32,670 nt of DNA from a virus (taxonomy: Duplodnaviria > Heunggongvirae > Uroviricota > Caudoviricetes): IMG/VR virus record IMGVR_UViG_3300045988_129198. One strand, 5' to 3'. A model generated the notes under the pieces. That model had not been told where the DNA came from and made no database searches. It saw only the letters and a program-made list of their open reading frames with translations. Both the position numbers and the translations under genes were made by a program. Of the stretch, positions 1-25,543 are shown piece by piece. Within the stretch, counting starts at the first letter, position 1. The number at the start of each line of letters is the position of its first letter.

Positions 1-23
1 TCCCTTACACGGGCTTATTTTTT
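1..23 (-). other. Prophage attachment-site core (ogr-proximal), truncated by window edge
   Basis: Reverse complement of 1-23 is AAAAAATAAGCCCGTGTAAGGGA, matching the first 23 nt of the P2 att core as I recall it; the position next to ogr fits. Confidence 0.6.
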
Positions 24-85
24 ACGCGTAACACAATGAAATAAAAGGATTTATTTCTGGTCACGTCCACACATTGACCACATCG

Positions 86-112
86 ACAAAAAAGCCCCTC
101 GACTGAGGGGCT
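86..112 (-). terminator. Intrinsic terminator downstream of ogr
   Basis: 8-bp GC-rich stem (93-100 / 105-112, AGCCCCTC/GAGGGGCT) with 4-nt loop, followed on the minus strand by a T6 run (plus 87-92). Confidence 0.7.
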
Positions 113-124
113 TCCTGTTTGTAA

Positions 125-343
125 TTACATCCACATAATTTGCTGCCCTGACGGCAACGGGTGCGGTCTTACGGCGTGGACTTCTCCCGGCTTCACGATG
201 TATCGCTGTACCGACTCATAAGTGATGAATGTGGCGCTGCAATTCACGTTCTGACACTGGTGATAACGCTCTTTTGTCGTGTCAGTGATATAGCGGCTTG
301 TACGCGCATGTGCGGCATGCTGGCATAAAGGACAATGAAACAT
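125..343 (-). CDS. ogr: Late gene transcriptional activator Ogr (zinc finger)
   Basis: 72-aa product from the first ATG (MFHCPLCQ...), with CxxC...CxxC motifs; essentially the P2 Ogr sequence. The 93-aa track ORF begins further upstream. Confidence 0.9.
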   Translation of the reverse strand: MFHCPLCQHAAHARTSRYITDTTKERYHQCQNVNCSATFITYESVQRYIVKPGEVHAVRPHPLPSGQQIMWM

Positions 344-424
344 CGCGAGCACCTCTTCCGGTTTTGTTGATGGTGCCATTTTAGTTAATTTATCCTTATA
401 AAACAAACAGATAAATAAATTACA

Positions 425-1588
425 TCACTCATCATCTTCTGTTTCGTACTCCACATCAGAAAGCCTGACCTCAAGCTCTAAGGACGTCGTGAAGCCGCTA
501 TTATTCAGAAAATGTGTCACCTTAGTGATTGTCCAGTCCTGCTCGTCTATGACGCGCTTAAAGCCTGATACTTTAACCGGTGTTTCCGTGTAAATATCAG
601 CACGACCGGTAGCCAGGCTGATGGAGAACTCCGCAACGCCCCGTTGCAGTTTATCCCACTTCGCCTGAGCGGCACGCATGGCCTGTGCTTTCGTGGCATA
701 TACCGTGGTCAGGGCAAAAACGTTGTCAGCCTCACCGGCCATGTATTCACCTTCGCGCGCTTCCGGTACTTTTGGCGCTTTCTTCTGCCTGACCGGTTTT
801 GCTTTCGGGTGCTCCAGTGCGCGCAGGTGTTTTTCTTTCTTTTTGCGTTTCAGTTTTACCTTCTGCTTTTGCGGCTTCGGGTCTTTGGTGTGTAACCACT
901 TTGCCGTTACGCCGGTATAGGCTCCACGGTCAGCAATCGCAAAATGATGGCGGTCGCCGTCGCTGCGGGTGATGGTGACCTGCGGGATTTTTTTACCGCT
1001 GGCCGTCACCCCCTGCCCCGCTTTGAGAAACAACAGTTTTCCCATTTTTACCGACACCTCACCGCCGTTGCGTTCTGCAAGACGGGTCAGGAATTTCGCA
1101 TCAGACTCCTGCGACTGGTCGATGTGCGGGATTTTAATTCCGGCCAGTGACGGAGCGACACTGGCTTCCAGCCTGTTACGGGAGGCTATCGCCTCAACAA
1201 TCGCACCGAGCGTGGTGTCATGCCAGGAGCCTTCCCGGCGGGAATTGAGCGTCCCGCGGAAATCTGCACTCCGGGCGCGGATGGTGACCACATCCGGCGC
1301 GCCCCGGTGTTCAACCTCATCAACGGTGAATTTCCCTTTGCATACCAGGGCAAAACCTTTCCAGCCGATATACACCGTCAGGACAGCGCCACGAACCGGC
1401 AGCCCGACCTGCCCGTCGGCATCGTTCAGTTCAATATCAAGCTGGTCAGCTTCAAAGCCCCGGTTATCCGTCAGAGTCATGCTCATCAGACGGTCGCTGA
1501 TATTGCCGGTAATATCCCTGCTGTCGAGCATCAGCATGTAATCCGGCGTCAGCGTACTGCCTGCATCAAATGTCAGCGCATCCAGCAT
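425..1588 (-). CDS. D: Tail protein gpD
   Basis: 387 aa, same length and position (between U and ogr) as P2 gpD; ATG confirmed at 1586-1588. Confidence 0.9.
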   Translation of the reverse strand: MLDALTFDAGSTLTPDYMLMLDSRDITGNISDRLMSMTLTDNRGFEADQLDIELNDADGQVGLPVRGAVLTVYIGWKGFALVCKGKFTVDEVEHRGAPDVVTIRARSADFRGTLNSRREGSWHDTTLGAIVEAIASRNRLEASVAPSLAGIKIPHIDQSQESDAKFLTRLAERNGGEVSVKMGKLLFLKAGQGVTASGKKIPQVTITRSDGDRHHFAIADRGAYTGVTAKWLHTKDPKPQKQKVKLKRKKKEKHLRALEHPKAKPVRQKKAPKVPEAREGEYMAGEADNVFALTTVYATKAQAMRAAQAKWDKLQRGVAEFSISLATGRADIYTETPVKVSGFKRVIDEQDWTITKVTHFLNNSGFTTSLELEVRLSDVEYETEDDE

Positions 1589-2067
1589 TATTCCGCCCCC
1601 GTCATCCCCGTGAATCTGGTCGCCAGACTACCGGCCTTACCGATGAGCGACTCCGCCTGTTTACCGATATCGCCATAAAGCGCGGCCAGTGATTCATCAA
1701 CGCGGGTGAGCGACAGCATAAAATCAATTTTTCGGGGTGTGCCGTCTGCAAAGAAAATACTCCCTGTTTCATTCACCTTGCTGATGACATACATACCGTA
1801 AATCATGCCGGTGCCATCCAGCAACGGCCACGCCCGGCCTTCCTCTGCCATCAGTCTGAGCGTGGTCATCGTCAGCTTGCCGCCGGTCAGTTCGGGATAA
1901 AGCACACCGGCAAGCGTGATGTTTTCCTCGCCCACACCGAGAAACTGAAAGGCATCCCGTTTACCGATACGGGAATTTGACGGCCAGCGATAATCTGATT
2001 CACGCTGCATGGTCTGGTGTGGCAGCGTCTGGCGCATAAAAACAAACATACCTAACGCGAGCATCAT
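1588..2067 (-). CDS. U: Tail protein gpU
   Basis: 159 aa, P2 gpU length and position; its stop overlaps the D start (ATGA-type coupling). Confidence 0.9.
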   Translation of the reverse strand: MMLALGMFVFMRQTLPHQTMQRESDYRWPSNSRIGKRDAFQFLGVGEENITLAGVLYPELTGGKLTMTTLRLMAEEGRAWPLLDGTGMIYGMYVISKVNETGSIFFADGTPRKIDFMLSLTRVDESLAALYGDIGKQAESLIGKAGSLATRFTGMTGAE

Positions 2068-2081
2068 TTTTCGTCACCTCC

Positions 2082-2777
2082 TTAACCGTCATGCATCATG
2101 CTGGCACGGGCGCGCGCACGTTTATCCCGCTCGTATTTTTCGAGCGCATCCTGTAACTGGCGGTCGAGCTGAGTCCCCGGCGCAGTACCGCCCGTCAGAC
2201 TGATGTGATATTCGTTTTTACTCTGGTCCACATAAGAGCGGCCAGCCGGTGCCGTAACCGGCTGATAAGCCTGATAGCCTGCATAAGAGCTGGTCGCCGG
2301 AATATAACCACCGGTGCCATACGTGGCGGCATGAGTTCTGGCGGCGGTCTGGTCAAGCGTGCCTGACTCTTTGTTGATAACACCGAGTTTTTCCAGTACC
2401 CAGTCAATACCGCTGCGCAGTTTGTTGAACGCATTAAGCGGCAGCATCAACGCGTCAGCCAGTGCCTGCCCGAACATGACGCCCGTATCACGGCAACGGT
2501 TCAGGGTGTCCCGGGTGGCTTTGACCGGGGCAATCAGGTTTTTAAACCACTGCCACGCGGCCTGTAACTTTTCGCCCAGCCAGTCAAACACCGGCTTAAG
2601 TGGCGTGAACAGTTCCCCCACCGGCGCAAATGCCGCTTTCAGCCCTTCAACCACACCGCCAAAGAATGCGCTGACAGACTCCCAGTATTTACGGATAAGT
2701 AACGCCCCGGCGACAATGGCGGGCCCCAACCGTCGTGAAGATTGCTCCCATTGCGCCTGCTGCCGCGATGATGGCAT
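2082..2777 (-). CDS. T: Tail tape measure protein gpT, C-terminal segment (separated from the N-terminal segment by a frameshift)
   Basis: 231-aa ORF directly downstream of the 595-aa T segment and overlapping it in another frame; together about 800 aa, close to P2 gpT (815 aa). Confidence 0.75.
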   Translation of the reverse strand: MPSSRQQAQWEQSSRRLGPAIVAGALLIRKYWESVSAFFGGVVEGLKAAFAPVGELFTPLKPVFDWLGEKLQAAWQWFKNLIAPVKATRDTLNRCRDTGVMFGQALADALMLPLNAFNKLRSGIDWVLEKLGVINKESGTLDQTAARTHAATYGTGGYIPATSSYAGYQAYQPVTAPAGRSYVDQSKNEYHISLTGGTAPGTQLDRQLQDALEKYERDKRARARASMMHDG

Positions 2778-4476
2778 TGATGCCGGTGATAACCGGCCAG
2801 GCTACGAGGCCAATGGCACCGATGACACCAATCAGCGCCAGTGCACCACCGACAATGATGCCGATGGTTGACGCCAGTGATTTGTTTTTCTGTATCCAGC
2901 CGTCGAGTTTTAACACATACTTTGTGGCCGTCTGCGTGAGCTTACGCAGTGCGCCTTCCTGCTGGTCAAACAGGTCAGTCCCCACCGCCTCATAAGCGGA
3001 CTGAAACTCCTTAAAGTCACCGCCGAGGTTGTCCTGCATGATATTTACCAGCTCGGCGGTCTTCCCGTCTGAGGCTTTAAACGCAGCGGTCAGTTTGTCC
3101 AGCTTTCCAGTTGAGGCGGCAGTCATCAGCACGGCGGCGGCTGAGCTGACCTCCTCCCCGAAAATAGTTTTCATGTATTCAGCCTGCTGGGCAGTACCGA
3201 GCCGGTTTTTCTCAAAACTGGCCTGCATTTCTTTCAGAATGGTAAATACTGGTCGAGTATTCCCTTTACTGTCTGAGGTTTTCACGCCAAGCTCTTTCAG
3301 TGCATCCCATGCTTTTCCCGTCGGTGCCTGCAGGCGGCTTAACACGGCACGGCTTCCCGTCCCCGCCATTGAACCGGTAATTTTTGCATCATGCAGCGCC
3401 CCGACCATTGCGGCGGTTTCTTCAATGCTGACACCAGCATTTTTTGCCACAGGTGCGGCATAGGTCAGCGCATCGCTCATGCCATCAAAATCGGCGGCGG
3501 TTTTGTTCATCGTCATGGAGAGAACATCCCCGATATGAGCGACCTTATCGTTTGAAAGCTGAAAGGCGGATTTCATCCCCATCAGCAGGGCGGCGTTTTC
3601 TTCCATCGTGCGACGGTTCGCCAGCGCCATATTCAGCGTGACCGGCGTTGCCGCCTGAATGGCATCAACATCCCCACCGGCTTTCGCAATAATAATCTGC
3701 GCACCGGCTGCATCATCTGCCGAGGCTGCGGTATTGTCGCCGAGCTGGCGCGCCTGCTTGCGTAGTGCAGCCATTTCGGCGGAGTCTTTTGCCACACCGA
3801 GCACAGCCTGCAATTCTGAGTTTTTCTGCGCAAACTCATAACCGGGCATCAGCAACTTAACTCCGGCCATCGTTCCCGCAGCAGCAATCCCCACACCGGC
3901 AGCGCCCACTGAGGCCATATTTCCGGCCAGTTCCTTTCCGGCCTGATAACGCTGTTTTACTGCGTTAAGTTTTGCCTGTTGTGCACTGACACGCGCCAGC
4001 GCGTCACGCTGACGGTTAAGCTGTGCGGTGGTTTCACTGATACGGTTTTTCAGTCCCTGCTCATCATGTGCAAGATTGCGGGTATTAATTCCCACAGCGG
4101 CCAGTTCCCGCTGCTGGCGTTTAATGGAATCTGTCAGGCGGTTATATTTCGCCTGTAAGTCCTCCGCCGCACGCTTTGCGGATTCCAGCACTTTCGCCTG
4201 AGCACGGGTCGGACGTTCAGTGTTTTTAAACTGTGTGGCAAGGGCTTCGGCTTCCTGCCGTGCCTTTTCAAGTGCATGACCAGTCACGGCAAGCTGTGCG
4301 CTGGTCTTGCGAAATCCCTCAATACGGGATGCGTGACCGTTCAGCTCGCGCAGTGATTTTTGTGTTTCCCGGATATCCCCCGACAGCGACTTACTCGCTG
4401 TGCGGATGGATTTAAACGGGCGGGATGCCTGGTCAACAGCCCTGAGCAATACCTGTAATTTTACATTGTTACTCAT
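2689..4476 (-). CDS. T: Tail tape measure protein gpT, N-terminal segment (595 aa)
   Basis: Starts MSNNVKLQVLLRA as P2 gpT does; Ala/Gly-rich helical repeats typical of tape measure proteins; its start overlaps the E' stop. Confidence 0.85.
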   Translation of the reverse strand: MSNNVKLQVLLRAVDQASRPFKSIRTASKSLSGDIRETQKSLRELNGHASRIEGFRKTSAQLAVTGHALEKARQEAEALATQFKNTERPTRAQAKVLESAKRAAEDLQAKYNRLTDSIKRQQRELAAVGINTRNLAHDEQGLKNRISETTAQLNRQRDALARVSAQQAKLNAVKQRYQAGKELAGNMASVGAAGVGIAAAGTMAGVKLLMPGYEFAQKNSELQAVLGVAKDSAEMAALRKQARQLGDNTAASADDAAGAQIIIAKAGGDVDAIQAATPVTLNMALANRRTMEENAALLMGMKSAFQLSNDKVAHIGDVLSMTMNKTAADFDGMSDALTYAAPVAKNAGVSIEETAAMVGALHDAKITGSMAGTGSRAVLSRLQAPTGKAWDALKELGVKTSDSKGNTRPVFTILKEMQASFEKNRLGTAQQAEYMKTIFGEEVSSAAAVLMTAASTGKLDKLTAAFKASDGKTAELVNIMQDNLGGDFKEFQSAYEAVGTDLFDQQEGALRKLTQTATKYVLKLDGWIQKNKSLASTIGIIVGGALALIGVIGAIGLVAWPVITGINAIIAAAGAMGAIFTTVGARHCRRGVTYP

Positions 4477-4896
4477 TCGTGTTTCCGCTTCGCCGGAGCG
4501 CCTTTTCGCGCCATGTGATGAGTTCGGTCAGGCTCATGGGATACAGTTCTGATGGCGGCCAGTGAAATATCACTGCCACATCCGCCATCAGGTCATCGAC
4601 CGAGAGATTTTTCGGGAACGTTACTGCACCGAGTTCGGCGACAAAAAACCGACCACCTTACCGGCCAGCGCCACAAGGTCAGGCAGTTCCAGCGCGGCGA
4701 CTTCCTGCTCGGTCAGCATCGGTGCCGTCATGCGCGGCAGCACCTTAATCAGTGCATCGACTTCGGAGTTCGCGACCGCAGCCAGACTGACACCGCGCAG
4801 CGTCCCGGCATTAGGTTTCATCAGCGTGACCTGTTCGATAACCTGCTCACCACGCTTGACCGGATTGTCCAGGGTAATCACATTTTCTTTGTTCAT
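4469..4896 (-). CDS. E+E': Tail assembly chaperone gpE+E', made by programmed -1 frameshift at the T6G slippery site (plus 4642-4649)
   Basis: After a -1 shift at GGTTTTTTG the frame stays open to TAA at 4469-4471, giving a C-terminus ...LITWREKALRRSGNTNE that overlaps the T start; this is the conserved E/E' arrangement. Confidence 0.75.
4621..4896 (-). CDS. E: Tail assembly chaperone gpE
   Basis: 91 aa, MNKENVITLDNPVKRGEQ..., P2 gpE-like; ends GFLSPNSVQ immediately after a TTTTTTG slippery heptamer. Confidence 0.9.
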   Translation of the reverse strand: MNKENVITLDNPVKRGEQVIEQVTLMKPNAGTLRGVSLAAVANSEVDALIKVLPRMTAPMLTEQEVAALELPDLVALAGKVVGFLSPNSVQ

Positions 4897-4952
4897 GGTT
4901 TTCTCACTTCTGAATCGGGGTTAACCGGTCAGCCAGGCTGACCGGATGAAAA

Positions 4953-5471
4953 TCACAGGCCGATATTGCGGCGGTGTTGCTCCAGCCGGTCGACGCCGTT
5001 CACCTTCTCAATCATGTTGATGGTGTCGATTTCGACCAGCGCCTTACCGTCCATCGTCAGCCGGAAATAGGTGCAGACCACGGAGATTTTCGACTCGGTG
5101 TCTTCTCCCTGTTTGCCCTCGCCGGTGTCGATTTCTTTCTGACGTCCACGCATGACCACCTCGACGGCCACCGTTTCGCCGGTATCGTCGCGCTGGTAAG
5201 AGCCTGCAAAACGAATCGGTACGGAATCCACACCGGTTGCGGCGTAAAGCTCCCAGATAACCGAATCCGGGAAGCCACCGAGCGACCACTCCATTGACAG
5301 CGCATCGTCATCAAGGCCGAGGTCTACCGGTGCGCTGCCGTTCATCCCCGCACCGCGATAGTTTTCGAGCTTACGGGTCAGTTTTGGTAGCGTGACGGAC
5401 TTCGCGACGCCCTGATAGCTGTAGCCGTTCAGAAAGACGTTCATTAACTTGAGTTTGCGCGGCATTGCCAT
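4953..5471 (-). CDS. FII: Tail tube protein gpFII
   Basis: 172 aa; P2 FII length and position. Confidence 0.9.
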   Translation of the reverse strand: MAMPRKLKLMNVFLNGYSYQGVAKSVTLPKLTRKLENYRGAGMNGSAPVDLGLDDDALSMEWSLGGFPDSVIWELYAATGVDSVPIRFAGSYQRDDTGETVAVEVVMRGRQKEIDTGEGKQGEDTESKISVVCTYFRLTMDGKALVEIDTINMIEKVNGVDRLEQHRRNIGL

Positions 5472-5483
5472 CGGTCAGGCTCC

Positions 5484-6674
5484 TTAATTGCTGTTAACCG
5501 AGGTGACCAGATTTGCCAGGTATTTATCGGTAATACGCTGGCGCAGGGTCAGGTTTTCAAGAGGAGGCACCGGTGTATAGTCGTAGTCGATATACAGTTT
5601 TCCGGCCTTGAGGGTTTCCGCATCGTTGGATTCTTCGCTGAACCAGCAGGTCGCATCCACGATATAGCCGTTTGTTTTCAGCTCACGGAATTTGGCATTG
5701 ATGCCGTCAACGATGTCGCGAATCAGCGTTGCGGTGATGGGCTTGTCCACCGCCCACATGTGCGCCTCAGCCATCGTGTCGGCCATCACCTGCGCGGTGC
5801 GGGTGTAGTTTTCAAAGAGGAACAGCGGGTCATCAGAGCAGGTACGGTTACCCCAGAATCGGAAACCGTCGCGGCGAATCAGCGTAGTGACGCCTGACTC
5901 GTTAAGCAGGTCAGCATCGGTGCCGGACTCCTGCAAATCCCAGAATACAGATGCGCTGATGCCGGTAACACCGTTTACCCCGACGTTGGACAGCGTTTTA
6001 TGCCAGCCCTGCTCCTGGTCGATTTTAGCGCGCAGACCCAGCGCACGGGCGGTGGCATACGCGGTGGCGGTGGTACTGGTGACCGTATCCCATGCGAGGA
6101 AATCCGGCCAGATGACCATCAGCTCACGCTGGCTGAAATTCTGGCGGTAGGCTTTCACCTCGGAAATGGTCTTACAGCCCCATGCGCTGATATATCCGAA
6201 AGCGCGCAGCTTCTGACAGACGGATGCCAGTGCAACAGCCACCTCTTTGGTATCCAGTCCCGGCACACCGAGAATACGCGGTTTAACACCGGTTACCGAC
6301 TCCGCCGCCAGCAGGGCTTTTAGTCCGGTGTACTGACCGTTTTCGTCGGTGGTGCCGATGATATTGGAAACGGTCTGCGCGAGTTTCGTTTCCTCGTCAT
6401 CACCGGTGCCGTCTTCCACGCGCACGACAACGGTGACCGGTTTTGACTGGTCAGCGATGGCCTGCAACGATGCCGCCAGCGTGCCTTTTTTACCGGCCTT
6501 TGCAATTGCGCTTTGCACATTGGTAATCAGCACCGGTTTATTGAGGGGGAAGGTTTCCGCATCCGCATCGCTGGCCGTGCAGACCATGCCGACAATGGCA
6601 GTGGATACGGTGGAAATGACGCGGGTGCCGTCGTTAATCTCCAGCACCTGCACGCCATGATGATAGTCACTCAT
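5484..6674 (-). CDS. FI: Contractile tail sheath protein gpFI
   Basis: 396 aa; P2 FI length and position. Confidence 0.9.
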   Translation of the reverse strand: MSDYHHGVQVLEINDGTRVISTVSTAIVGMVCTASDADAETFPLNKPVLITNVQSAIAKAGKKGTLAASLQAIADQSKPVTVVVRVEDGTGDDEETKLAQTVSNIIGTTDENGQYTGLKALLAAESVTGVKPRILGVPGLDTKEVAVALASVCQKLRAFGYISAWGCKTISEVKAYRQNFSQRELMVIWPDFLAWDTVTSTTATAYATARALGLRAKIDQEQGWHKTLSNVGVNGVTGISASVFWDLQESGTDADLLNESGVTTLIRRDGFRFWGNRTCSDDPLFLFENYTRTAQVMADTMAEAHMWAVDKPITATLIRDIVDGINAKFRELKTNGYIVDATCWFSEESNDAETLKAGKLYIDYDYTPVPPLENLTLRQRITDKYLANLVTSVNSN

Positions 6675-6769
6675 CCGTTTAACTCCGTGGTTAATGGGTG
6701 CAACTATTTTCTGTTGTGCAGAGCATAAGACGCTATTTGACCTGGCTGGTCAGTGGATGAAACAACAGA

Positions 6770-6800
6770 TAAAGAAAAGGCGGGCAATTCGCCCGCCTGT
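6770..6800 (-). terminator. Intrinsic terminator between the accessory island / V-G operon and the FI operon
   Basis: GC stem AGGCGGGC-AATT-GCCCGCCT (6777-6800), followed on the minus strand by a T-rich tract (plus 6770-6778 aaagaaaag). Confidence 0.6.
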
Positions 6801-6853
6801 CCTGATTTGTACTCACTCATTTTCCGCCTGACAATTTACATAGCCCAAATGCT

Positions 6854-6876
6854 ATCAAATCTGACAGTCTGCTTTG
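6854..6876 (+). repeat. Repeat site L (core CTGACAGTCT), left boundary of the accessory cassette
   Basis: ATCAAATCTGACAGTCTGCTTTG; a near-identical direct copy at 9164-9186 and an inverted copy at 9287-9308. Confidence 0.7.
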
Positions 6877-7004
6877 AGCGAAAAGTGGACATTAGAGTTA
6901 CAAAAGCAAGTTTAAATCATCCAAAATATTACAATGTCCTTATCTATCTGATATCGTTATGATAAAAAGCTCCTGAATATAATCGATAGTAGGTGGTTAT
7001 TTCC

Positions 7005-7382
7005 ATGAAATCAATTTTAGAGGTTTTTACTCAAGGAAATACTAAAGAAAAACTGGCTGTTATCGCCGATCTCACAACCATTGCGGGAATATCGATTGCA
7101 ACTATTATTGCTGGTTTGTTAACCCTAGTTGCAAAAACAGATAAACTAGATATTGGAAATCTGTTTGGAGTTGTCATAATATCTCTGCTCGGATTGGCTG
7201 GTGTTTGCTGTTTTGTGGCCTTATTTATTTGGGTTATAACCCAAATGTCTAAACCATGGGGAACACCTCGGGGGGTTCAGCCCTTAGTTAAGTGTGCTAT
7301 TTCCCTTATCTTTATCTGTATGTTTTTACTGGCTGTCTTTACATTTTATGAGTTTATTTCTTCGATGAGCATACGCTATTGA
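7005..7382 (+). CDS. Small integral membrane protein (3 predicted TM helices), function unknown
   Basis: ATG at 7005 preceded by AGGTGG; the track ORF begins at GTG 6993. Three hydrophobic segments of about 20-25 aa; AT-rich codon usage unlike the phage backbone. Confidence 0.6.
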   Translation: MKSILEVFTQGNTKEKLAVIADLTTIAGISIATIIAGLLTLVAKTDKLDIGNLFGVVIISLLGLAGVCCFVALFIWVITQMSKPWGTPRGVQPLVKCAISLIFICMFLLAVFTFYEFISSMSIRY

Positions 7383-7404
7383 ATATAAAATCAGCCCCCA
7401 TAAC

Positions 7405-7989
7405 TTAAAAGAGACCTTCTATATCGACTTCAATGCCCAAATAACGGACTGTGCTTTCCAGTTTCTTATGGCCCAACAGAAGTTGGATCACCCGGAGACT
7501 CTTGGTTTTCTTGTAGATTAAGTAAGGTTTTGTTCTTCTCATGGAATGTGTGCTGTACAGCGAATCTTCGAGACCAAGCTTTTCTACCCACCCATGAAAA
7601 ATTCGGTTGTATTGCCGGGTTGATATATGGTGGTTAGTTCCGACCCGAGAGCGGAACAGGAAGCCTTTACTATGCAAGTTGCCGAGCTTTATCAATGCAG
7701 TAACCGCTTCCCTTGTCCCTTTGGTTATCTCAAATTGGACAGGGCTGCCGGTTTTCTGTTGCAACACCGTTGCTCTGCTTGAGACAGAACTGCCATATGC
7801 AGCATCTGATACTTTGAGTTTGACCAAATCACAGCCCCGTAGCTTAGTGTCCAAAGCCATGTTGAACAGAGCTAGATCGCGTGTTTTACCTTCCAACTCA
7901 AGTCTAATCCGGATCCCCCAGATATGAGATATCTGAAGTGGCCTTTTTTGACCGATGGTACGGTCTTTATTCCACGGTGACGTTTTCAT
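7405..7989 (-). CDS. Small tyrosine recombinase (FimB/FimE-like size, phage-integrase catalytic fold)
   Basis: C-terminal HSMRRT...LRVIQLLLGHKKLESTVRYLG resembles the HxxR / LGH / Y boxes of tyrosine recombinases, and LRGCDLVKLKVSD resembles box I. First ATG at 7987-7989 with AGGAG 7 nt upstream; the track ORF extends to a TTG at 8091. Confidence 0.7.
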   Translation of the reverse strand: MKTSPWNKDRTIGQKRPLQISHIWGIRIRLELEGKTRDLALFNMALDTKLRGCDLVKLKVSDAAYGSSVSSRATVLQQKTGSPVQFEITKGTREAVTALIKLGNLHSKGFLFRSRVGTNHHISTRQYNRIFHGWVEKLGLEDSLYSTHSMRRTKPYLIYKKTKSLRVIQLLLGHKKLESTVRYLGIEVDIEGLF

Positions 7990-8095
7990 ATTCAAATCTC
8001 CTGCAATGTGGGAGATTTGAGTATGGTTGTCTCTCAAGAGCGAAAATAAGTCAACTATCACTAGTTGTTGCGCATGTACGTATTCTGTCAATTAA

Positions 8096-8938
8096 TTATT
8101 GACAATCATCAATTCTGGAATGATCAAAATCATCATATCGAATTATAGTCTGGTTGACTGTATCTATTGTTGGTGTCATTTCTGTTATAATATCCTGATA
8201 ACCTAAAGAGTTAAATACATTTACTAAGGCCTCACACCGAAGGGCCGTAGCAATTACAAAATTATAAATTGCCAGCCGTTTATTTTCTTGTTTAACTGCA
8301 AGAATGAATTCGATAGCAGTATTTTCATCACTTTGGATTGCATTATATAGAGATACTATATTTACCATATCATCAGAGAATGTATGTATTGAATCACAAA
8401 GGGGAACGTAATGGGCATGATAGTGTGTTTCCCAGCCAATTAATTCAAAAAGTTTTCTGGTTCCTGGATATTCAGGTGTATTTGGCCACAATCTATTAAA
8501 TAGATCAGTTAGTTCTTTTCCCATGCGAATCCTTTCATTTGCTGCTGGATTAGTCATTCCTTTGGATTTTAAACACTCCAGCCACCGTTTTCCATTACTA
8601 TGAACTAATTTCTTACTAGCCTTGAGTAATGCTTGTGCATTTTCGCCATCATCTATTGCTATATAAAATTGATTGGCAGCCTGTTCTATTATAACCCTAG
8701 CTAATACTTCCGATGCTGAAAAGGCTCCTATATTCAAAGAAGAGATAGCCTGATTACTAAGTTCATTCAGTACATTAAAGTACTGTAAGACCATCAATTT
8801 TTGTTCCACACCCTTTAGGTTGTCTATTTTATTTTTATGCTCCTCAAATTTTGCATGGATATATTTATTTATCGCGGCTATTTTTTTTACATCTTCGTCA
8901 AGATCAAACGGGCAACGTCCAAACAATTCTTTTTTCAT
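8096..8938 (-). CDS. Hypothetical 280-aa protein (cargo gene, no motif recognised)
   Basis: ATG at 8936-8938 with strong AGGAGA RBS; AT-rich; located upstream of and co-oriented with the recombinase gene. Confidence 0.75.
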   Translation of the reverse strand: MKKELFGRCPFDLDEDVKKIAAINKYIHAKFEEHKNKIDNLKGVEQKLMVLQYFNVLNELSNQAISSLNIGAFSASEVLARVIIEQAANQFYIAIDDGENAQALLKASKKLVHSNGKRWLECLKSKGMTNPAANERIRMGKELTDLFNRLWPNTPEYPGTRKLFELIGWETHYHAHYVPLCDSIHTFSDDMVNIVSLYNAIQSDENTAIEFILAVKQENKRLAIYNFVIATALRCEALVNVFNSLGYQDIITEMTPTIDTVNQTIIRYDDFDHSRIDDCQ

Positions 8939-9163
8939 ATATTTCTCCTGTTGTACAAGCTTCCATACGTTGGCAGATTATACACTGAAGATTACCTATA
9001 AATAGCTGTGCGGGATAGCAGATCAGTGCAAGAAGTACAACCAAGTGAACTGTGCGTATTCAGATACCTGGCCTAACGTTCGCGATAGCCGTCCCCTGCA
9101 CGAAGCCATATATTAGATGTATTAGCTCAGACCTTATCTGACAGGTTGAGTAGGTAGAATCTA

Positions 9164-9186
9164 ATCAAAGCTGACAGTCTGGTTTG
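9164..9186 (+). repeat. Repeat site M (direct copy of L)
   Basis: ATCAAAGCTGACAGTCTGGTTTG, 21/23 identical to site L. Confidence 0.7.
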
Positions 9187-9286
9187 GACTGTGAGTTCAA
9201 CTGATGGATGCAACACACAGCGATCTACGGACATTACTAGCATAGCTGTGTATTAATCATCGGGAAGCAGGTCAGTCCGCTCCTAG

Positions 9287-9308
9287 CACAGAGCAGACTG
9301 TCAGATTA
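9287..9308 (-). repeat. Repeat site R (inverted copy of L/M), lying in the loop and 5' arm of a 10-bp-stem hairpin
   Basis: Reverse complement AATCTGACAGTCTGCTCTGTGC; 16 nt identical to L; flanked by stem 9284-9293 / 9316-9325 (TAGCACAGAG/CTCTGTGCTA). Confidence 0.7.
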
Positions 9309-9359
9309 GGCTTTACTCTGTGCTATAGATACGTTAGCTCACTCCAGAGATCATACAAC

Positions 9360-9887
9360 TTATTGCGGCATTTCCGGCCATTCAGGATTTGCAGGATCCA
9401 CACGGCTGACCAGAACACTGTAGCGTTCCCATGCTTCCAGTCGGCTACGCTCCTCATCTGTTGCCATATTCAGTCTGACAGAGCGTTCCAGTGGCTGAAT
9501 GATAGTTTCAGCTTCGGAAAGCAAAGCTGACTTCTGTAATTCCGCCAGTTGCAGCTGTTCGTCTGCCGTATAAATCCGCTTAATCACGGCACCATCCTTA
9601 AACATCCATTTACCTGAGTCATCAGCACGTCGGTTGGCGGTAATATCAGGAACCTCGACAACGCTAAAACCTTCAGGGTTGAGCGTTGAAGCATCTCTGG
9701 TGATGCCGACAATTATATTATTCTCATCGTAAACAATCTTTATCGTGTCTTCCTGAAAATTACTTACTTCCTCATACCAGTTTTTTCCCTCTTCGGACCA
9801 TAACCAGATAACATCAAAATTTTTTGTCAGTTGATATTGGGCAACAGTTTTTGGATTACCCGCAGTAATATTTTTTAAATGCTGCAT
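9360..9887 (-). CDS. G: Tail fiber assembly chaperone gpG
   Basis: 175 aa; P2 gpG size; immediately downstream of H. Confidence 0.85.
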
Positions 9888-9890
9888 AAA

Positions 9891-12626
9891 TTACACCTGT
9901 GCGACGTTATACCATGTGCCATTGATGTATTTTTGTATTGGTCTGAATACTGCGGGGTCATCACCATCGACTTCACCGACAATACCAAGCCCGGTAATTA
10001 CGTGCCCTGCTTTCTCATACATCACCCCTTTCTGCATGGTCTGGACAACACGTGTGCCAAGTCTGACATCTCTCACATAGCGGGAATCAAAGTTACCGTA
10101 ATCCGAGGGATTAACACGCCCCGTAATATTTATGGTTTTATTACTTTGAACGCTTCCGGAGACAAAGCGCATAACATGGACGCTATTAGCATAAACATCC
10201 AGATTACCATCACCATTTTGTTTAAAGCCCGTGTCATTATCACCCAAAACAATCGAATTACCGCCAAGAGCACTGGATGTTCCTATACCCAGAGCACCAT
10301 TCAATTGACCACCAGATAACGGCAGTGCACCGACATCTCCCGCTGTAGGTTTTCGCGTTGTGGTATAAAACTCAGACCAGTCAGCCTCGAATCCGTAACC
10401 GTCACGAGCAGAACGATAAAAAATACCACCGTTCTTATAATTAACGCGAAACTGGGCGGCGGGACAACTTCCTTCCCCGATATTAAAATGAAGAATTAAC
10501 GTTGATGCCCCACCAATAGTTGCGTTATAGGCTCCGCTACTCCAGTTCCATCCAACGGCTTTATCATTCGCAACGGTGTCTCCTGTTTTTCCTGAAGCAA
10601 ATGCACCAATACTTTTCGGCGTCAGGTTAATATCTGATGTTCCATCAAACGAAACGTTATTAATTTTACGGGCTGTTTTCAGCTTTGTTGCTGTCGCCGC
10701 ATTGCCGGACAGTTCACCAGAAAGGCCAGCACTGAATGTCTGTTTCGCGCCCCATGTCTGGGCTTCGTCAATGATTGGTACTCGTCTTGTTGTGATCGTG
10801 CGGCCTCCCGGATTTCCTGAAATGCGCACCATAAAAAAGCGGTAGTTGGCTTTACTTACAGTGCTGCGCCATACATGCATTGAGCGCCCCGAACCAGAAT
10901 CATCACTCGGACCGACTGAGATGTTTATCAGGTTGCCATCAATGACGCCCCAGTCCATACCGTCGGGAATGTTGGTCATATTATCAAGCCGAACGGTTAT
11001 CAGACTGCCCGGCACAAAATCGTAGGTCTGCCAGTCCAGACTGGATAGTTTTGCCACTGCGCCACCGATGCCCAGATTCAGAGGCAACGAAAAGGAGTTA
11101 TATACTTCTCGCCATTCGGTCCATTTGCTCCCGGCATAGACGCGCTCAAAAGTGCGCCCCTGTGTGGTTTCTGATTTCCCTGTGGTTGTGTAACGCTGCC
11201 AGACAGATACACCATCAAAACGCCTGATTACTTCCAGTATTCCAAGCAGTGTCGCTCCAGCGGTATCCTGCATTGGACCGTTTGACGCCTTCCCTGTAAC
11301 GCTGTAAATGCCTGGCGAAGTCAGATCATTCAAATCACCTTCGTAATAACGACATTCTGACTGATGGCCTACTCTTGACCACGGCTCCCACTGTGGGTTC
11401 TGTGCATTCCATATAGCAGAAAGGCAGCGAACATATACGTTCCCACGGCGGGTCGTATAGCGTTGCGTGCGTGAGTACCCACCACCCTCAAGAACTTCAA
11501 GGAATCCCTGACCATAACTTCCTTCTTCCGGATAGTTGCGGTCAAATGAAGCGATAGTGCCACTACTGTTTCGCCATAAACCAAGATGCTCTGCGCCTCC
11601 TAGCGTGTTCAGGTCAATAGTTGTGCTCAGGGGGCGTGTTGCAGACTGAATCTGACGCCAGTAGATCCACGGACCGTCTGAGCCATTCCAGGTGCCAGAA
11701 AGATTACGCATATAAACATTGCCAGTTCTGGTGGTATAACGCTGCATTCCGGAAAAATTACCGCCATTGAATACCTCAAGAACACCGACTGCACCGTCTT
11801 CAGGGAAATTTTTCTCCAGTGTTGCGTTGGAGGATGTGGATTTATACCAGACACCCACATAAGCCTTAACTGGACCAAATGTATTGAGATCAGCATCAAC
11901 CGGCATTTCGCCGTTGTTTTTCATAAACGTCAGGCTGGTAACACCAATATTGTCCAGAAAAGCTGATTTATCCTGGATATCTGCACCGTTCTGATTTTTC
12001 GCCAGACGTGAATTTGCGTTGTCATTTGCTGCCTTGACCGCTTTTGGCGTTGCCGCCAGCTCTTCACTGGTGCTGTTTGTTGCACTGCTTAACTGAGTAA
12101 AACCTTTTTCTGTCAGCGTGGCGTCAGGATGGCGGCGGGACTGCTCATGCTCTGCGATTTTGTCATCGACGTAATCCTGCGTCGCCATCACTGTGCTGGC
12201 ATCAATACTCAGCTCAACGGACGCCACGTTGCTGAGAATAATAACCATGCGGCAGGTCTGCGCACGTCCGGAGCCTTCAGCCAGTTCTGGCTTATAGCTT
12301 TCAGCCATGTTGGATACCGCAATCAGTGTTCCGGCATCGTCATACAGACCAAGCTCACGCATCCAGAAGCCGCCCACTTCGGGCGGTACAACCAGTTCAG
12401 CCACAATATAGTTTTTATTCTTATTATCCACACTGACTTTATTCAGAGCGTGACGCCAGACCTCATGCACCAGTTTCGTCTGACCGGCATCCGGCACCGG
12501 TAATTTGCCATTACCGTCACCCACGGCCATTGCAGACAGGTTTACTTTTTTCCCGCCGGGGACAGTGGCGGCTGCCAGCTTTGCGGCTCCGGCAGTAGTG
12601 ATAACGGTTTTAAATTTCGTGCTCAT
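9891..12626 (-). CDS. H: Tail fiber protein gpH (911 aa, three internal tandem repeats, extended C-terminal region)
   Basis: N-terminus MSTKFKTVITTAGAAKLAAA is the conserved P2 H baseplate-attachment region; three repeats of about 90 aa each contain QRYTT(R/T)xGNVY. Confidence 0.9.
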   Translation of the reverse strand: MSTKFKTVITTAGAAKLAAATVPGGKKVNLSAMAVGDGNGKLPVPDAGQTKLVHEVWRHALNKVSVDNKNKNYIVAELVVPPEVGGFWMRELGLYDDAGTLIAVSNMAESYKPELAEGSGRAQTCRMVIILSNVASVELSIDASTVMATQDYVDDKIAEHEQSRRHPDATLTEKGFTQLSSATNSTSEELAATPKAVKAANDNANSRLAKNQNGADIQDKSAFLDNIGVTSLTFMKNNGEMPVDADLNTFGPVKAYVGVWYKSTSSNATLEKNFPEDGAVGVLEVFNGGNFSGMQRYTTRTGNVYMRNLSGTWNGSDGPWIYWRQIQSATRPLSTTIDLNTLGGAEHLGLWRNSSGTIASFDRNYPEEGSYGQGFLEVLEGGGYSRTQRYTTRRGNVYVRCLSAIWNAQNPQWEPWSRVGHQSECRYYEGDLNDLTSPGIYSVTGKASNGPMQDTAGATLLGILEVIRRFDGVSVWQRYTTTGKSETTQGRTFERVYAGSKWTEWREVYNSFSLPLNLGIGGAVAKLSSLDWQTYDFVPGSLITVRLDNMTNIPDGMDWGVIDGNLINISVGPSDDSGSGRSMHVWRSTVSKANYRFFMVRISGNPGGRTITTRRVPIIDEAQTWGAKQTFSAGLSGELSGNAATATKLKTARKINNVSFDGTSDINLTPKSIGAFASGKTGDTVANDKAVGWNWSSGAYNATIGGASTLILHFNIGEGSCPAAQFRVNYKNGGIFYRSARDGYGFEADWSEFYTTTRKPTAGDVGALPLSGGQLNGALGIGTSSALGGNSIVLGDNDTGFKQNGDGNLDVYANSVHVMRFVSGSVQSNKTINITGRVNPSDYGNFDSRYVRDVRLGTRVVQTMQKGVMYEKAGHVITGLGIVGEVDGDDPAVFRPIQKYINGTWYNVAQV

Positions 12627-12636
12627 TGTTTCTCAC

Positions 12637-13167
12637 TTATCCGGGATAAACAGTAATAACATCACCATCACAGACCACACCGCCTGTATACAGGTAGCCG
12701 GGAATGTCCTGGGTAATGTTCAGACCAATAAGGTGACGGCTTGCGGGTTTGGCATCAGCAATCAGTCGCTCCATTTCCAGATACATTTCCTCTGTGATGC
12801 CGCTTTCCAGTACACCAATATCGAGCCGGAAGGTGCCGGGCGGGTCATTGTTTTCCCACCACTCCGTCACATTGATGAGATAGCCGAGCGGCTCCACCAC
12901 ACGCCGGATTGCGCCGACAGTGCCTTTATGACAGTGGATGAAATAGGCATCGCGGATAACGGCGCGTTTTGTCGCTTCCGGCCACTTTTCATCCCACCTG
13001 TCGACCGAAAACGCCCACGCCAGCCACGGCAGCAGATTTGCCGGACAGGTGTCCGGGTTCCACAGCTCACGAATACTGACCGGCGTTTTTTCAATTTCCG
13101 CACAGGCTTTTGCAGCGGCGACTTCAAGCGGTGATGAGCCGGTCGGCAGCAGTCGCGAATCACTCAT
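12637..13167 (-). CDS. I: Baseplate protein gpI
   Basis: 176 aa; P2 gpI size and position. Confidence 0.9.
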   Translation of the reverse strand: MSDSRLLPTGSSPLEVAAAKACAEIEKTPVSIRELWNPDTCPANLLPWLAWAFSVDRWDEKWPEATKRAVIRDAYFIHCHKGTVGAIRRVVEPLGYLINVTEWWENNDPPGTFRLDIGVLESGITEEMYLEMERLIADAKPASRHLIGLNITQDIPGYLYTGGVVCDGDVITVYPG

Positions 13168-14068
13168 CCGAGCCTCCGGTCACGACGCGGTATTCGGTAC
13201 AGAAAGACGCCTGCGTGCTGTTAAGCACGATATCGGCCAGCGGTGCAGCCAGTTCGACACGCTGCACGCCTTCCACATGCAAAGCGGCATAAATGGCAGA
13301 CAGACGGATGTCGCGCCCCAGCCGGTGCTGTGCCGTGATGTACGCTTCCAGTTTTTTCACTGCAGCAGCGCGAATTGGTTCGCTTTCGGGACCAGGGTAA
13401 AGGTAAAGCGTGGCGTTTATCTGGTATTCAACGATGGCGGCAGACTGCACGGTCACGCGGTCGGCCACCGGTCTGACGTCCTCGCCATTAAGGGCGTTAC
13501 GCACCACCGCCAGCAGGTCTTCGGAAGCGACACCGTTATTTTCACGTGACAGCACAGAGATGGTGACACAGGCCGGAGACGGACTGGTGACAGAGATATC
13601 CGCGACACGCCCGTCGGCACTGCGGCCATGATACTGATAGGCACCCACCGACCCGGCGACGCTTAAACCTTCAAACGCCTGCTGAATACGCAGACGATAA
13701 TCAGTGTCAGATTCCATTACTGCCGGTGTCGGCGGGATGGTCGAATCATCTGCTGGGGTGATAATCAGGCGCGTGGTATTGTAATTGGCACCAATCACAT
13801 CAAGGTCATTACCGGCGGCACTGGCCAGCATCACCGCCCGTGCGGCCTCATTCACACGCTGACGCCAGATAAGCTCACGATAAGCATTTTCCTCCAGCAG
13901 TTTGACGAGAGGTTCGGATTCCAGCGTCAGGGTATGGGCGACCGCCTCCTGCTGGTCTTCCGGGTAAAGGGAAATCAGTGTCGCCTTGCGTTCGGCAAGA
14001 ATGGTTTCAAAGTCCAGCTCCTCGACCACATCCGGTGCGGGTAGCTGGTTCAGGTCGATAATCGGCAT
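13160..14068 (-). CDS. J: Baseplate protein gpJ
   Basis: 302 aa; P2 gpJ size and position. Confidence 0.9.
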   Translation of the reverse strand: MPIIDLNQLPAPDVVEELDFETILAERKATLISLYPEDQQEAVAHTLTLESEPLVKLLEENAYRELIWRQRVNEAARAVMLASAAGNDLDVIGANYNTTRLIITPADDSTIPPTPAVMESDTDYRLRIQQAFEGLSVAGSVGAYQYHGRSADGRVADISVTSPSPACVTISVLSRENNGVASEDLLAVVRNALNGEDVRPVADRVTVQSAAIVEYQINATLYLYPGPESEPIRAAAVKKLEAYITAQHRLGRDIRLSAIYAALHVEGVQRVELAAPLADIVLNSTQASFCTEYRVVTGGSDE

Positions 14069-15185: not shown

Positions 15186-16277
15186 ATGGATACACGCATG
15201 TCAGACATTCTAATTACTTATGATGAACGGAAAGATAAATTTGAGTCCTATGCCCTTACTCTTAAATCGTTATTAACCACGTTAATTCGCAATGAAAAAA
15301 TTTCAATTCACTCACTTGAATCAAGAGTTAAAACAAAAAAAAGCCTTGAAGGTAAGATTAATAAAAAGGGAAAATACAAGTCTATAGATGATATTACTGA
15401 TATCGTTGGTATCAGGATCATCACACATTATGCTGATGATGTTGATAAGATAGCTGCTATAGTTGAAAAGGAGTTCACCATTGACCAAGAGAACTCTATT
15501 GATAAAAGAACCTCAATTGCGCCTGATAAATTTGGTTACCTATCACTTCATTATATAGTAACTTTAAACTCAACCAGAACAAACTTAAAAGAATATGAAG
15601 TATATAAAAACATCAAAGCCGAATTACAAATACGATCAATCCTTCAGCATGCCTGGGCGGAGATTGAACACGACATTGGTTATAAGTCGGCCACAGGACT
15701 GCCTAATGAAATAAGAAGATACTTTTCACGCTTAGCTGGTCTTTTAGAAATGGCCGATGATGAATTTATTAAAATCAGAAAAAAGATTTCTGAACGGCAG
15801 AAAGAGGTTGCAAAAGAACTAGAGCAAGGAACTAGTGATTCAGTTTTAGATATTTTCACTTTGGATGAGTTCTTAAACACAAGTCGAATTATGAGTGAAC
15901 TTTCAGAAGAGATAAAAGAAAAAACAGGAATCACAGTACATGGCCGATACAAGGATAAAGATTTGGGATACCTACTAAATGGTTTAAACCTAGCCAACAT
16001 AACTACAATAGAACAACTCAATCAAAAACTCTCACAAATGAAAAAGCAGATCGTAGATAGAATATTCTGCTTCGGAGAACCATTTATTAATTATTGCAGA
16101 GAAACCCCCATGCCAAAAGAAGCTCTTTTGAGTTATTTATGTCAAATTATCGTTGCGTTTCAAAACTCACCTTCGTTAGAATCTGAATTTAATAACAAAG
16201 CAGGTTTAAATCTGAAAAACAGCAATATCTCCGATTTTTTCTCGAATATAAGAGAAAACATAAGCACACAACCTTAG
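15186..16277 (+). CDS. RelA/SpoT-domain nucleotidyltransferase (toxSAS), candidate fused toxin-antitoxin of CapRel type
   Basis: Synthetase-domain signatures SRVKTKKSLEGKI...DIVGIRIITHYADD and ELQIRSILQHAWAEIEHDIGYK. About 363 aa with a C-terminal domain of about 150 aa with no recognisable motif. Start is ambiguous (TTG 15177, ATG 15186 or ATG 15198). AT-rich, on the opposite strand to the flanking late genes, at the P2 orf30 position. Confidence 0.8.
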   Translation: MDTRMSDILITYDERKDKFESYALTLKSLLTTLIRNEKISIHSLESRVKTKKSLEGKINKKGKYKSIDDITDIVGIRIITHYADDVDKIAAIVEKEFTIDQENSIDKRTSIAPDKFGYLSLHYIVTLNSTRTNLKEYEVYKNIKAELQIRSILQHAWAEIEHDIGYKSATGLPNEIRRYFSRLAGLLEMADDEFIKIRKKISERQKEVAKELEQGTSDSVLDIFTLDEFLNTSRIMSELSEEIKEKTGITVHGRYKDKDLGYLLNGLNLANITTIEQLNQKLSQMKKQIVDRIFCFGEPFINYCRETPMPKEALLSYLCQIIVAFQNSPSLESEFNNKAGLNLKNSNISDFFSNIRENISTQP

Positions 16278-21703: not shown

Positions 21704-22558
21704 TCAGCAGTTCGTCATCAGGGCGTCACCGCCACCACCGGTGGCCTTGCTGCGGCGCTGCTGGGTCAGACTTTCGGTGTGGTCGAGACTGTTTTTCAGG
21801 CGGGTGAATGCCTGGCTGGTTTCATCCGCTCTGTCAGTCACCTCCTGCTTAAGTGCGGAAAAGGCGGTTTCCATCTCAGCGAGGCGCTGCTCAGTGGCAC
21901 TCAGTTTTTCCTGCACATGTTCAGCAACAGCGGTCACCGCTTCATGCACGTCATTCAGACGGGCGTCATCGCTGGCCTGTTTGCGGCCAAAAATGGATTT
22001 CACCTTTTCGGTCAGGGCGGTGAACACGGTTTCAGGCAGGTCTTCAAACTCCAGCTCAACAGGCGTTGCCACTGAAATCAGGTTTTCAGGGCTTAATTTG
22101 AAGCGGTTCAGGGGGTTATGTTTTGCCGTGCGGCAGAATTCCAGGTATTCCGTGCCGAGGCTTGCCGGGTCATCGGTGACGGCCAGCCCCACCAGATAAC
22201 ATTTGCCGGTGTTGGCAAAGTTCGGCTGAATTTCCATTGAGGTATAGACCTTCTGCGCGGCCTTGTTCATCGCGATAAGGTCATCGGTCGGGGTGATTTT
22301 CGCAAACAGCGCCCATTTGCCTTTCAGCGCCGAATCATCGTCAATCTTTTCGGCCTTCAGTTCGGCCACATCGCCATAACGCTTAAAAATACCGTCAGGC
22401 AGGATGCCGCGCAGATGTTCCAGGTTAATGCGGCAACCATAGACACGCGGGTCAAAGGTTTCGGCCATTTCCTGAATATCCTGCGCACTGATGACACGCC
22501 CGTCACAGGTGTCACCCTCAACGCCGATACGAAAGAATTTTGAGACTTTTTTTGCCAT
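21704..22558 (-). CDS. O: Capsid scaffolding protein gpO
   Basis: 284 aa from MAKKVSKFFRIGVEGDTCDGR...; the track ORF extends upstream. Confidence 0.9.
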   Translation of the reverse strand: MAKKVSKFFRIGVEGDTCDGRVISAQDIQEMAETFDPRVYGCRINLEHLRGILPDGIFKRYGDVAELKAEKIDDDSALKGKWALFAKITPTDDLIAMNKAAQKVYTSMEIQPNFANTGKCYLVGLAVTDDPASLGTEYLEFCRTAKHNPLNRFKLSPENLISVATPVELEFEDLPETVFTALTEKVKSIFGRKQASDDARLNDVHEAVTAVAEHVQEKLSATEQRLAEMETAFSALKQEVTDRADETSQAFTRLKNSLDHTESLTQQRRSKATGGGGDALMTNC

Positions 22559-22731
22559 TGTCAGGAGTCCTGAATAGTGATTAGAGGAGTCACATGTCGG
22601 CATCAGTTTCCCGACGATGCGCATCCTCCGCCATCAGTCCCGGATGGCTTATCACTGACACAACAGCACCTTAGCGAATCGCGGGGCGCGACTCAGTAGC
22701 CTTGCCGTGTATTCATCACGGCGAGGTATTC
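22559..22731. promoter_or_regulatory. Divergent late-promoter region between O and P (expected Ogr-dependent)
   Basis: 173-bp intergenic region between divergently transcribed O and P, where P2 places its divergent late promoters; no exact TGT-N12-ACA match was found by eye. Confidence 0.4.
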
Positions 22732-24504: not shown

Positions 24505-25538
24505 TGAGCAAGAAAGAAGGGAAAACACCGCAGCCAGCGGCAAAAACAATCACCGCCAGCGCCCCGAAAATGGAAGCATTCACCTTTGGCGAGCCGGTGC
24601 CGGTACTCGACCGCCGTGACATTCTGGATTACGTCGAATGCATCAGTAACGGCAGATGGTATGAGCCGCCGGTCAGCTTTACCGGTCTGGCAAAAAGCCT
24701 GCGTGCTGCCGTGCATCACAGCTCACCGATTTACGTCAAACGCAATATTCTGGCCTCAACATTTATCCCGCATCCGTGGCTTTCGCAACAGGATTTCAGC
24801 CGCTTTGTGCTGGATTTTCTGGTGTTCGGTAATGCGTTTCTGGAAAAGCGTTACAGCACCACCGGTAAGGTCATCAGACTGGAAACCTCACCGGCAAAAT
24901 ATACCCGCCGTGGTGTGGAAGAGGATGTTTACTGGTGGGTGCCGTCCTTCAACGAGCCGACACCTTTCACGCCCGGTTCCGTGTTTCACCTGCTGGAGCC
25001 GGATATTAATCAGGAGCTGTACGGCCTGCCGGAATACCTCAGCGCCCTTAACTCTGCCTGGCTGAATGAGTCGGCCACGCTGTTCCGCCGCAAGTATTAC
25101 GAAAACGGCGCACATGCCGGATACATCATGTACGTCACCGATGCCGTGCAGGATCGCAACGATATCGAAATGCTTCGCGAAAACATGGTGAAGTCGAAAG
25201 GCCGCAACAACTTTAAAAATCTGTTTCTCTATGCCCCACAAGGGAAAGCCGACGGCATTAAAATTATCCCGCTCAGTGAAGTGGCGACGAAGGACGATTT
25301 TTTTAATATCAAAAAAGCCAGTGCCGCAGACCTGCTGGACGCCCACCGCATCCCCTTTCAGTTGATGGGCGGCAAGCCGGAGAACGTCGGGTCGCTGGGT
25401 GATATTGAGAAAGTGGCAAAGGTCTTTGTCCGCAATGAGCTTATCCCGTTACAGGACAGGATCCGAGAGATAAACGGCTGGCTCGGTCAGGAGGTCATCC
25501 GCTTTAAAAACTACTCACTGGACACTGACAACGACTGA
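24504..25538 (+). CDS. Q: Portal protein gpQ
   Basis: 344 aa; P2 gpQ size; its start overlaps the P stop. Confidence 0.9.
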   Translation: MSKKEGKTPQPAAKTITASAPKMEAFTFGEPVPVLDRRDILDYVECISNGRWYEPPVSFTGLAKSLRAAVHHSSPIYVKRNILASTFIPHPWLSQQDFSRFVLDFLVFGNAFLEKRYSTTGKVIRLETSPAKYTRRGVEEDVYWWVPSFNEPTPFTPGSVFHLLEPDINQELYGLPEYLSALNSAWLNESATLFRRKYYENGAHAGYIMYVTDAVQDRNDIEMLRENMVKSKGRNNFKNLFLYAPQGKADGIKIIPLSEVATKDDFFNIKKASAADLLDAHRIPFQLMGGKPENVGSLGDIEKVAKVFVRNELIPLQDRIREINGWLGQEVIRFKNYSLDTDND

Positions 25539-25543
25539 ACATC

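Follow-up and report, generated by a model that had tools for sequence, protein, structure and literature searches.

The gene for the tail tape measure protein T of a P2-like prophage is represented by two overlapping reading frames in the DNA analyzed here, a stretch of 32,670 nucleotides that is referred to as the window, and this arrangement raises the question of what has divided the gene. The window is a P2-like (Peduovirus) prophage of Escherichia coli that is integrated between yegQ/trhP and yegR. A preliminary description had attributed the division to a +1 frameshift in a C4/G4 homopolymer, which was seen either as a sequencing error or as an inactivating mutation. The following features of the tail region are relevant to this question:

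2689..4476, minus strand: 5' part of gene T (tape measure), an open reading frame of 595 aa, identified by a Pfam match and by comparing each residue with the uninterrupted T of E. coli ECA64
2082..2777, minus strand: 3' part of gene T, an open reading frame of 231 aa with its stop codon at 2082-2084
4469..4896, minus strand: tail chaperone genes E (4621-4896) and E' (4469-4588), assigned by sequence and gene integrity
1588..2067, minus strand: gene of gpU, 159 aa, intact, next downstream of T
425..1588, minus strand: gene of gpD, 387 aa, intact, at the end of the FETUD operon

Both reading frames of gene T were found with the positions and sequences given in the preliminary description. The 595-aa frame comprises gpT residues 1-584 followed by the 11 out-of-frame residues ARHCRRGVTYP (C-terminus ...AIFTTVGARHCRRGVTYP) and ends at a TAA stop codon at 2689-2691. 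The 231-aa frame (...SSRRLGPAIVAGALL) contains native gpT residues 604-815, encoded at 2085-2720, and its part upstream of 2720 is an out-of-frame read-through of the 5' half of T. It is shifted by +1 relative to the 595-aa frame, and the two frames overlap by 89 nt (2689-2777). A Pfam search detected the PF10145 domain (PhageMin_Tail, 1e-45) at residues 239-440 of the 595-aa frame and no match in the 231-aa frame. The split pair does not represent a chance pattern, as each half shares 97-100% identity with the T genes of P2-like phages. Gene-by-gene mapping with annotated relatives located T between the E/E' chaperone genes and U-D within the FETUD tail operon; the relatives display the order FI-FII-E-E'-T-U-D-ogr and carry T as a single 815-aa 'phage tail tape measure protein'. 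The PF10145 match along with this synteny confirmed the earlier assignment of the gene as T, the P2-like tape measure gene; in this prophage, only the tail-fibre gene H is longer.

The length of gene T provided the first indication that more than a single base is involved. The gene spans 2395 bp in the window (2082-4476) as opposed to 2448 bp in all relatives listed, which comprise 73 phage records and 1595 records from 1592 complete E. coli genomes; the shortfall is 53 bp. The matches of these relatives to the window T, with nucleotide identities of 97-98.5% for P2 and P2-like phages and of up to 99.8% in E. coli genomes, fall into two pieces that together span 2448 bp. In an evenly spaced sample from the whole E. 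coli ranking, 57 of 60 T homologues were exactly 2448 bp long, down to an identity of 88%, which indicates that the length of T is strongly conserved. A single 815-aa frame was present in 14 of the 17 fetched relatives that span the whole gene, the three exceptions being broken elsewhere in T. The comparison with gpT of close relatives that the preliminary description had called for hence revealed no common two-frame arrangement, but one frame of 815 aa. Window T shares 97% nucleotide identity, the same operon and the same start and stop positions with the gene of P2 gpT (815 aa, PF10145), and it is 99.8% identical to T of E. coli ECA64. It differs from P2 gpT in that the uninterrupted frame of 815 aa and 2448 bp is lost: a net deletion of 53 nt disrupts the frame after codon 584, eliminates residues 585-602, places residue 603 within the junction and shifts residues 604-815 out of frame.

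The nature of the interruption was deduced from blastn comparisons of the window with five relatives (L003, L025, L026, L028 and L029), supplemented by a three-way alignment. Two further features are defined by these alignments:

2723..2725, minus strand: deletion junction, at which coding GGC replaces 56 nt, with a net loss of 53 nt
2721..2727, minus strand: GGGGCCC run, a product of the junction that is absent from all relatives compared

In otherwise identical prophages, the 56-nt segment CAGTGCTGTTGTGACGGCCATCGGGGCGATTAGCTGGCCGGTTGTGGCCGTGGTGG is located between ...ACGGTTGG and CCGCCATTG..., whereas the junction of the window reads ACGGTTGGGGCCCGCC (window allele ...CACGACGGTTGGGGCCCGCCATTG...). 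Positions 1-2722 and 2726-25754 of the window align to the prophage of strain 317 (L003) with 274 substitutions and no gaps, and the only insertion or deletion detected by blastn over these 25.7 kb is the exchange of 56 nt for 3 nt. The isolate assembly L028 contains the 56-nt segment and shows neither mismatches nor gaps over window positions 1-2722 and 2726-13267. A single Logan contig, represented by L026 and L018, differs from the whole window by one substitution and likewise has the segment, as do L025 and L029, which are nearly identical to the window. The T protein comprises 815 aa in L025, L026 and L028.

The lesion can be parsed in two equally economical ways, either as an in-frame deletion of 54 nt that comprises codons 585-602 (SAVVTAIGAISWPVVAVV) plus one extra C, or as a pair of deletions, 24 nt and 29 nt long, between which an internal GGGGC is left in place. 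Residues 585-602 form the third hydrophobic helix of a block extending from residue 532 to 616. Microhomology at the breakpoints amounts to none under the 54-nt parse and to 2 nt under the parse with 24 and 29 nt. A hairpin-mediated deletion was considered and rejected, since the predicted DNA fold of the wild-type segment is no better than that of shuffled sequences (z = 0.53). Taken together, the 0-2 nt of microhomology and the hairpin score make no simple slippage mechanism evident. The GGGCCC at the junction is an ApaI-type palindrome, and an examination of the junction revealed nothing that would suggest engineering.

The distribution of the junction was determined by searching several sequence collections. 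A 48-mer spanning it was absent from 5426 complete E. coli genomes and from 50,697 phage records (INPHARED), whereas the corresponding wild-type 48-mer, used as positive control, matched 1120 of the E. coli genomes. Exact and gapped junction patterns yielded no hits in the GTDB representatives, IMG/VR and the JGI metagenomes, and the wild-type control pattern recovered 116 IMG/VR contigs. Among the 153 billion gene positions of a further collection, no record of the 595-aa product was found. The lesion is thus private to this assembly.

The two options offered by the preliminary description, an error or an inactivating mutation, both stand. We lean towards the view that the deletion is real, that it arose very recently in the E. 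coli population sampled and that it possibly coexists with the intact allele; this would represent ordinary prophage decay and not a homopolymer miscall. The regions flanking the lesion are error-free, with no mismatches or gaps relative to L028 over 13.3 kb. The junction moreover consists of novel k-mers that a De Bruijn assembler should not be able to invent without supporting reads, which argues for a real variant. A rare 2-nt deletion in the C repressor gene of the window is reproduced in four independently recorded contigs, so that the assembly appears faithful at that position. On the other hand, a knockout of T offers no obvious selective benefit to the host cell.

A particularly informative counterpart of the window is the scaffold LIJU14-1_SAMEA2338799_METAG-scaffold_432 (L036, ENA ERZ28599814), whose length of 32,723 bp exceeds that of the window by exactly 53 bp. 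The last 10,728 nt of this twin scaffold are 100% identical to window positions 21943-32670 and terminate at the identical base, and the frameshifted C repressor gene common to both assigns them to the same rare sub-lineage. This independently assembled scaffold and the window probably derive from one and the same prophage, in one sample or in two sister samples, and the scaffold length together with the absence of the 595-aa product makes an intact T in the scaffold very likely. The 53 additional base pairs imply either that both alleles coexist or come from sister samples, or that the junction of the window is an assembly or library artefact.

Such an artefact is a possibility to which tentative but considerable weight is given. 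The source DNA would then contain an intact T of 815 aa, and the replacement of 56 nt by 3 nt would have arisen during assembly, scaffolding or gap closing, or from a read that was chimeric or duplicated, in a metagenome of low coverage. The restriction of the lesion to this one assembly is in agreement with this explanation, as is the twin scaffold with its excess of exactly 53 bp, its identical right end and its identical overlap of 10.7 kb. In addition, the assembly of run ERR414424, whose source is probably this sample or a sister of it, breaks at positions 4980 and 13272, which points to low coverage or to the presence of another P2-like prophage in the metagenome, and the 3-nt filler without microhomology is unlike a clean biological deletion. 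However, the junction is flanked by no repeat of assembler k-mer length that could short-circuit the graph, and the error-free flanks and the fourfold record of the 2-nt deletion in C speak against an unreliable assembly; the intact T of the twin scaffold is itself deduced from the scaffold length and the missing 595-aa product.

The homopolymer explanation of the preliminary description has a sound observational basis. On the coding strand, GGGG at 2724-2727 directly precedes CCC at 2721-2723, a +1 offset disrupts the frame, and the removal of one base does restore it, with ...TTVGPAIVAG... resulting from the loss of one G and ...TTVGAAIVAG... from the loss of one C. The predicted fusion protein of about 800 aa, close to the length of P2 gpT, nevertheless turned out to comprise 797 aa in either case and remains 18 residues below 815; it would still be devoid of the third hydrophobic helix, a difference of 54 nt from the gene of the 815-aa gpT. 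The proposed cause did not withstand the alignments, which replace it by the exchange of 56 nt for 3 nt: an extra base as the sole cause is refuted by near-identical prophages that carry the 56 nt. Since the tract was created by the junction, sequencing reads with CCC instead of CCCC, which had been named as evidence for an error, would not restore the wild-type gene.

In a broader form, this explanation assumes either a single extra base in the G4/C3 run, caused by a miscall or a 1-nt slip, or a miscall on top of a genuine allele with an in-frame deletion of 54 nt, and it has to be rated as very improbable. In its favour, removal of the C yields TTVG followed by AAIVAGALL, which matches native residues on both sides, and true 1-nt homopolymer frameshifts in T are known from L006 (A5 to A4) and L103. 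Against it, the relatives read GTTGGCAG...GGTGGCCGCC at the position of the tract and possess no G3 or G4 run there, so that none of them displays a tract shorter or longer by one base, and the difference amounts to 53 nt and not to 1 nt. The softer variant predicts GGGGCCGCC or GGGCCCGCC at the junction, but neither of these two in-frame junctions shorter by one base, nor a 797-aa in-frame allele, was found in the 5426 complete E. coli genomes; the three contig collections likewise contained no 54-nt-deleted or one-G-shorter ancestral allele. Finally, the 25.7 kb compared contain no other 1-nt insertion or deletion and hence no homopolymer-error profile, the only other indel of the assembly being the 2-nt loss in a CACAC sequence; the absence of gaps over these 25.7 kb argues against an error-prone consensus. 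The case illustrates that a frameshift mendable by one base can conceal a larger lesion, and that near-identical relatives are needed before a homopolymer error is called.

A functional split, in which a programmed +1 ribosomal frameshift within 2689-2777 joins the frames or the tape measure operates as two polypeptides, can be dismissed as exceedingly improbable, although a +1 shift anywhere within the 89-nt overlap would fuse the frames and phage tail operons are known to use programmed frameshifts. An example is located just upstream: the P2 E/E+E' pair likewise consists of two overlapping frames in the same tail operon and is expressed by a programmed -1 frameshift at TTTTTTG (PMC3091744), a slippery site that is intact in the window at 4640-4646. 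This site is conserved in all relatives, whereas the split of T is found in none of them (14 of 17 with a single frame and the other three broken at other sites) and would need a +1 shift. A direct reading of the overlap at 2689-2777 detected no shift-prone motif, neither a heptamer of the type X XXY YYZ nor a prfB-like CUU UGA motif. The fused product would still be 18 residues short, and the ATG at 2777 that opens the 231-aa frame has no Shine-Dalgarno-like sequence upstream that could serve as ribosome-binding site. In view of established tape-measure biology, a ruler in two pieces should furthermore be unable to span the tail.

If the sequence is taken as written, T would represent a null allele. 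A tape measure protein must span the distance from the baseplate hub to the tail terminator as one chain, and T is essential for the formation of P2 tails. The deletion would remove codons 585-602 with the third hydrophobic helix and shift the frame by +1, and translation from the T start codon would yield residues 1-584 of gpT and 11 junk residues, with the last 212 residues left unjoined. The C-terminal part that would be absent includes the helices docking to the spike, which in the window are not covalently continuous with the N-terminal ruler, as residues 604-815 are out of frame. In the cryo-EM structure of P2, C-terminal helices of the tape measure have been built into density at the gpV spike, and candidate transmembrane helices have been proposed to act as a pore or inner-membrane conduit (bioRxiv 10.64898/2026.09.14.750843). 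Because the C-terminal 212 residues are missing, the protein would not be anchored at the baseplate, and polymerisation of tube and sheath should fail. The prophage as written should accordingly be blocked in tail assembly, both for itself and for a P4-type satellite, and would keep its genes for lysogeny, lysis, heads and cargo. The premature stop codon, located 607 nt before the normal end of T, may also reduce the expression of U and D by polarity.

To assess the integrity of the remaining genes, the annotation of strain 317 was projected onto the window for the 32 genes that extend from ogr to Q. All 31 genes other than T that were compared are free of internal stop codons and have kept their start codons. 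T is therefore the only broken morphogenesis gene of the window, which as written contains a disabling lesion in an essential morphogenesis gene, as is characteristic of defective prophages. Prophages of the P2 type are not SOS-inducible, so that induction by mitomycin C, which had been suggested as an assay for tailed particles, would be a poor test.

Broken T genes are common among the relatives of the window. The prophage on Logan contig SRR11478762_203 (L029), otherwise identical to the window, has an amber mutation (CAG to TAG) at codon 505 of T, and the complete genome AP024126.1 (L006) has lost one base in an A5 run of the gene. A common internal T deletion of 1.9 kb, with a 7-nt overlap at its junction, was detected in two samples (L037 and L039); L103 is shifted by -1 within the same 56-nt segment that is affected in the window, and T of L038 and L041 was called in pieces. 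A search with a 131-aa C-terminal T fragment retrieved only other, differently broken T genes. These T-defective P2-like prophages resemble the window in that the same gene is disabled and the remainder is largely intact, and several of them occupy the same chromosomal site; each lesion differs in position and type, and none has the junction of the window. As T is the second-longest gene, lesions in it fit ordinary mutational decay.

The window shares with grounded defective prophages the combination of a null allele in a structural gene with intact accessory genes, which here specify a ParA-like ATPase with a HEPN RiboL-PSP protein, a RelA/SpoT-like protein and a DUF5677 protein. It differs from them by having one clearly disabling lesion and no substitutions relative to intact copies. 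If the lesion is real, the window consequently represents at most the very first step of decay. A more far-reaching proposal is that a real deletion would be one of several independent T knockouts in one circulating clone and would reflect a selection that acts recurrently among gut E. coli to ground a P2 prophage with defence cargo, tail assembly being disabled and immunity and cargo kept. The same clone includes the amber mutation at codon 505 in SRR11478762 and the C-terminal frameshift of the C repressor in the sub-lineage of the window. We regard this proposal as unlikely.

The gene of the immunity repressor C (31943-32377, plus strand) has lost 2 nt after position 32189, where CACAC is reduced to CAC at codon 83. 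The frameshifted protein consists of 82 native residues extended by 62 out of frame, which gives 144 aa where the regular product has 99; its gene overlaps the start of int at 32355. This variant is on record in four contigs, including one from the human gut metagenome ERR414424 (PRJEB5224) and the 32,723-bp scaffold. The C-terminus of P2 C is disordered over 14 residues, of which the final 9 can be dispensed with (PMC2995052), so that the frameshifted C may still repress. The only substitution relative to Logan contig SRR13674859_68 across 32.6 kb is located at position 372 in the ogr-D intergenic region (G in place of A); one substitution along with two deletions constitutes an unusual ratio of indels to substitutions.

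Accessory genes are located at three positions of the window. The region 25854-27524 (minus strand) between the portal gene Q and the replication gene A contains a two-gene cargo that encodes a ParA/MinD-like AAA_31 ATPase (347 aa) and a HEPN RiboL-PSP protein (207 aa). No match to this stretch was found at this locus among the complete E. coli genomes searched. The pair occurs in about 107 blocks of a large collection, always together with a gpA of 689 aa, and its PADLOC matches are weak (PDC-M28B); the two genes likely constitute a candidate defence pair in a P2 hotspot. Between the baseplate gene V and the tail gene S (15198-16277, plus strand), a RelA/SpoT-like 'GTP pyrophosphokinase' of 359 aa is encoded that matches the PADLOC candidate system PDC-S33 (1e-16). 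Further cargo is present at 7005-8938 between the sheath gene FI and the tail-fibre assembly gene G, namely genes for a 125-aa hypothetical protein, a short tyrosine recombinase of 194 aa and the DUF5677 protein. The exact variant of the 125-aa protein is rare (22 contigs) and served as lineage marker.

The replication protein gpA (27723-29792, minus strand) comprises 689 aa, compared with 757-770 aa in other P2-like prophages, and its sequence diverges from about residue 658 onwards, a point that lies at the border of the cargo hotspot. A truncation of gpA as a second lesion of the prophage was rejected, as 689 aa is the called length in contigs with the same cargo wherever the gene was called, which identifies the protein as a natural variant.

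The divided T gene of the window thus reflects either an assembly error or an ordinary null mutation in a prophage tail gene and in any case belongs to a known kind of feature, the significance of which is small beyond annotation. In the case of an artefact, the prophage would be intact and probably functional. If the deletion is real, the prophage would produce no infectious particles and provide no help for P4-like satellites, but would keep its immunity and candidate defence cargo, and the deletion would represent a textbook first step of prophage decay.
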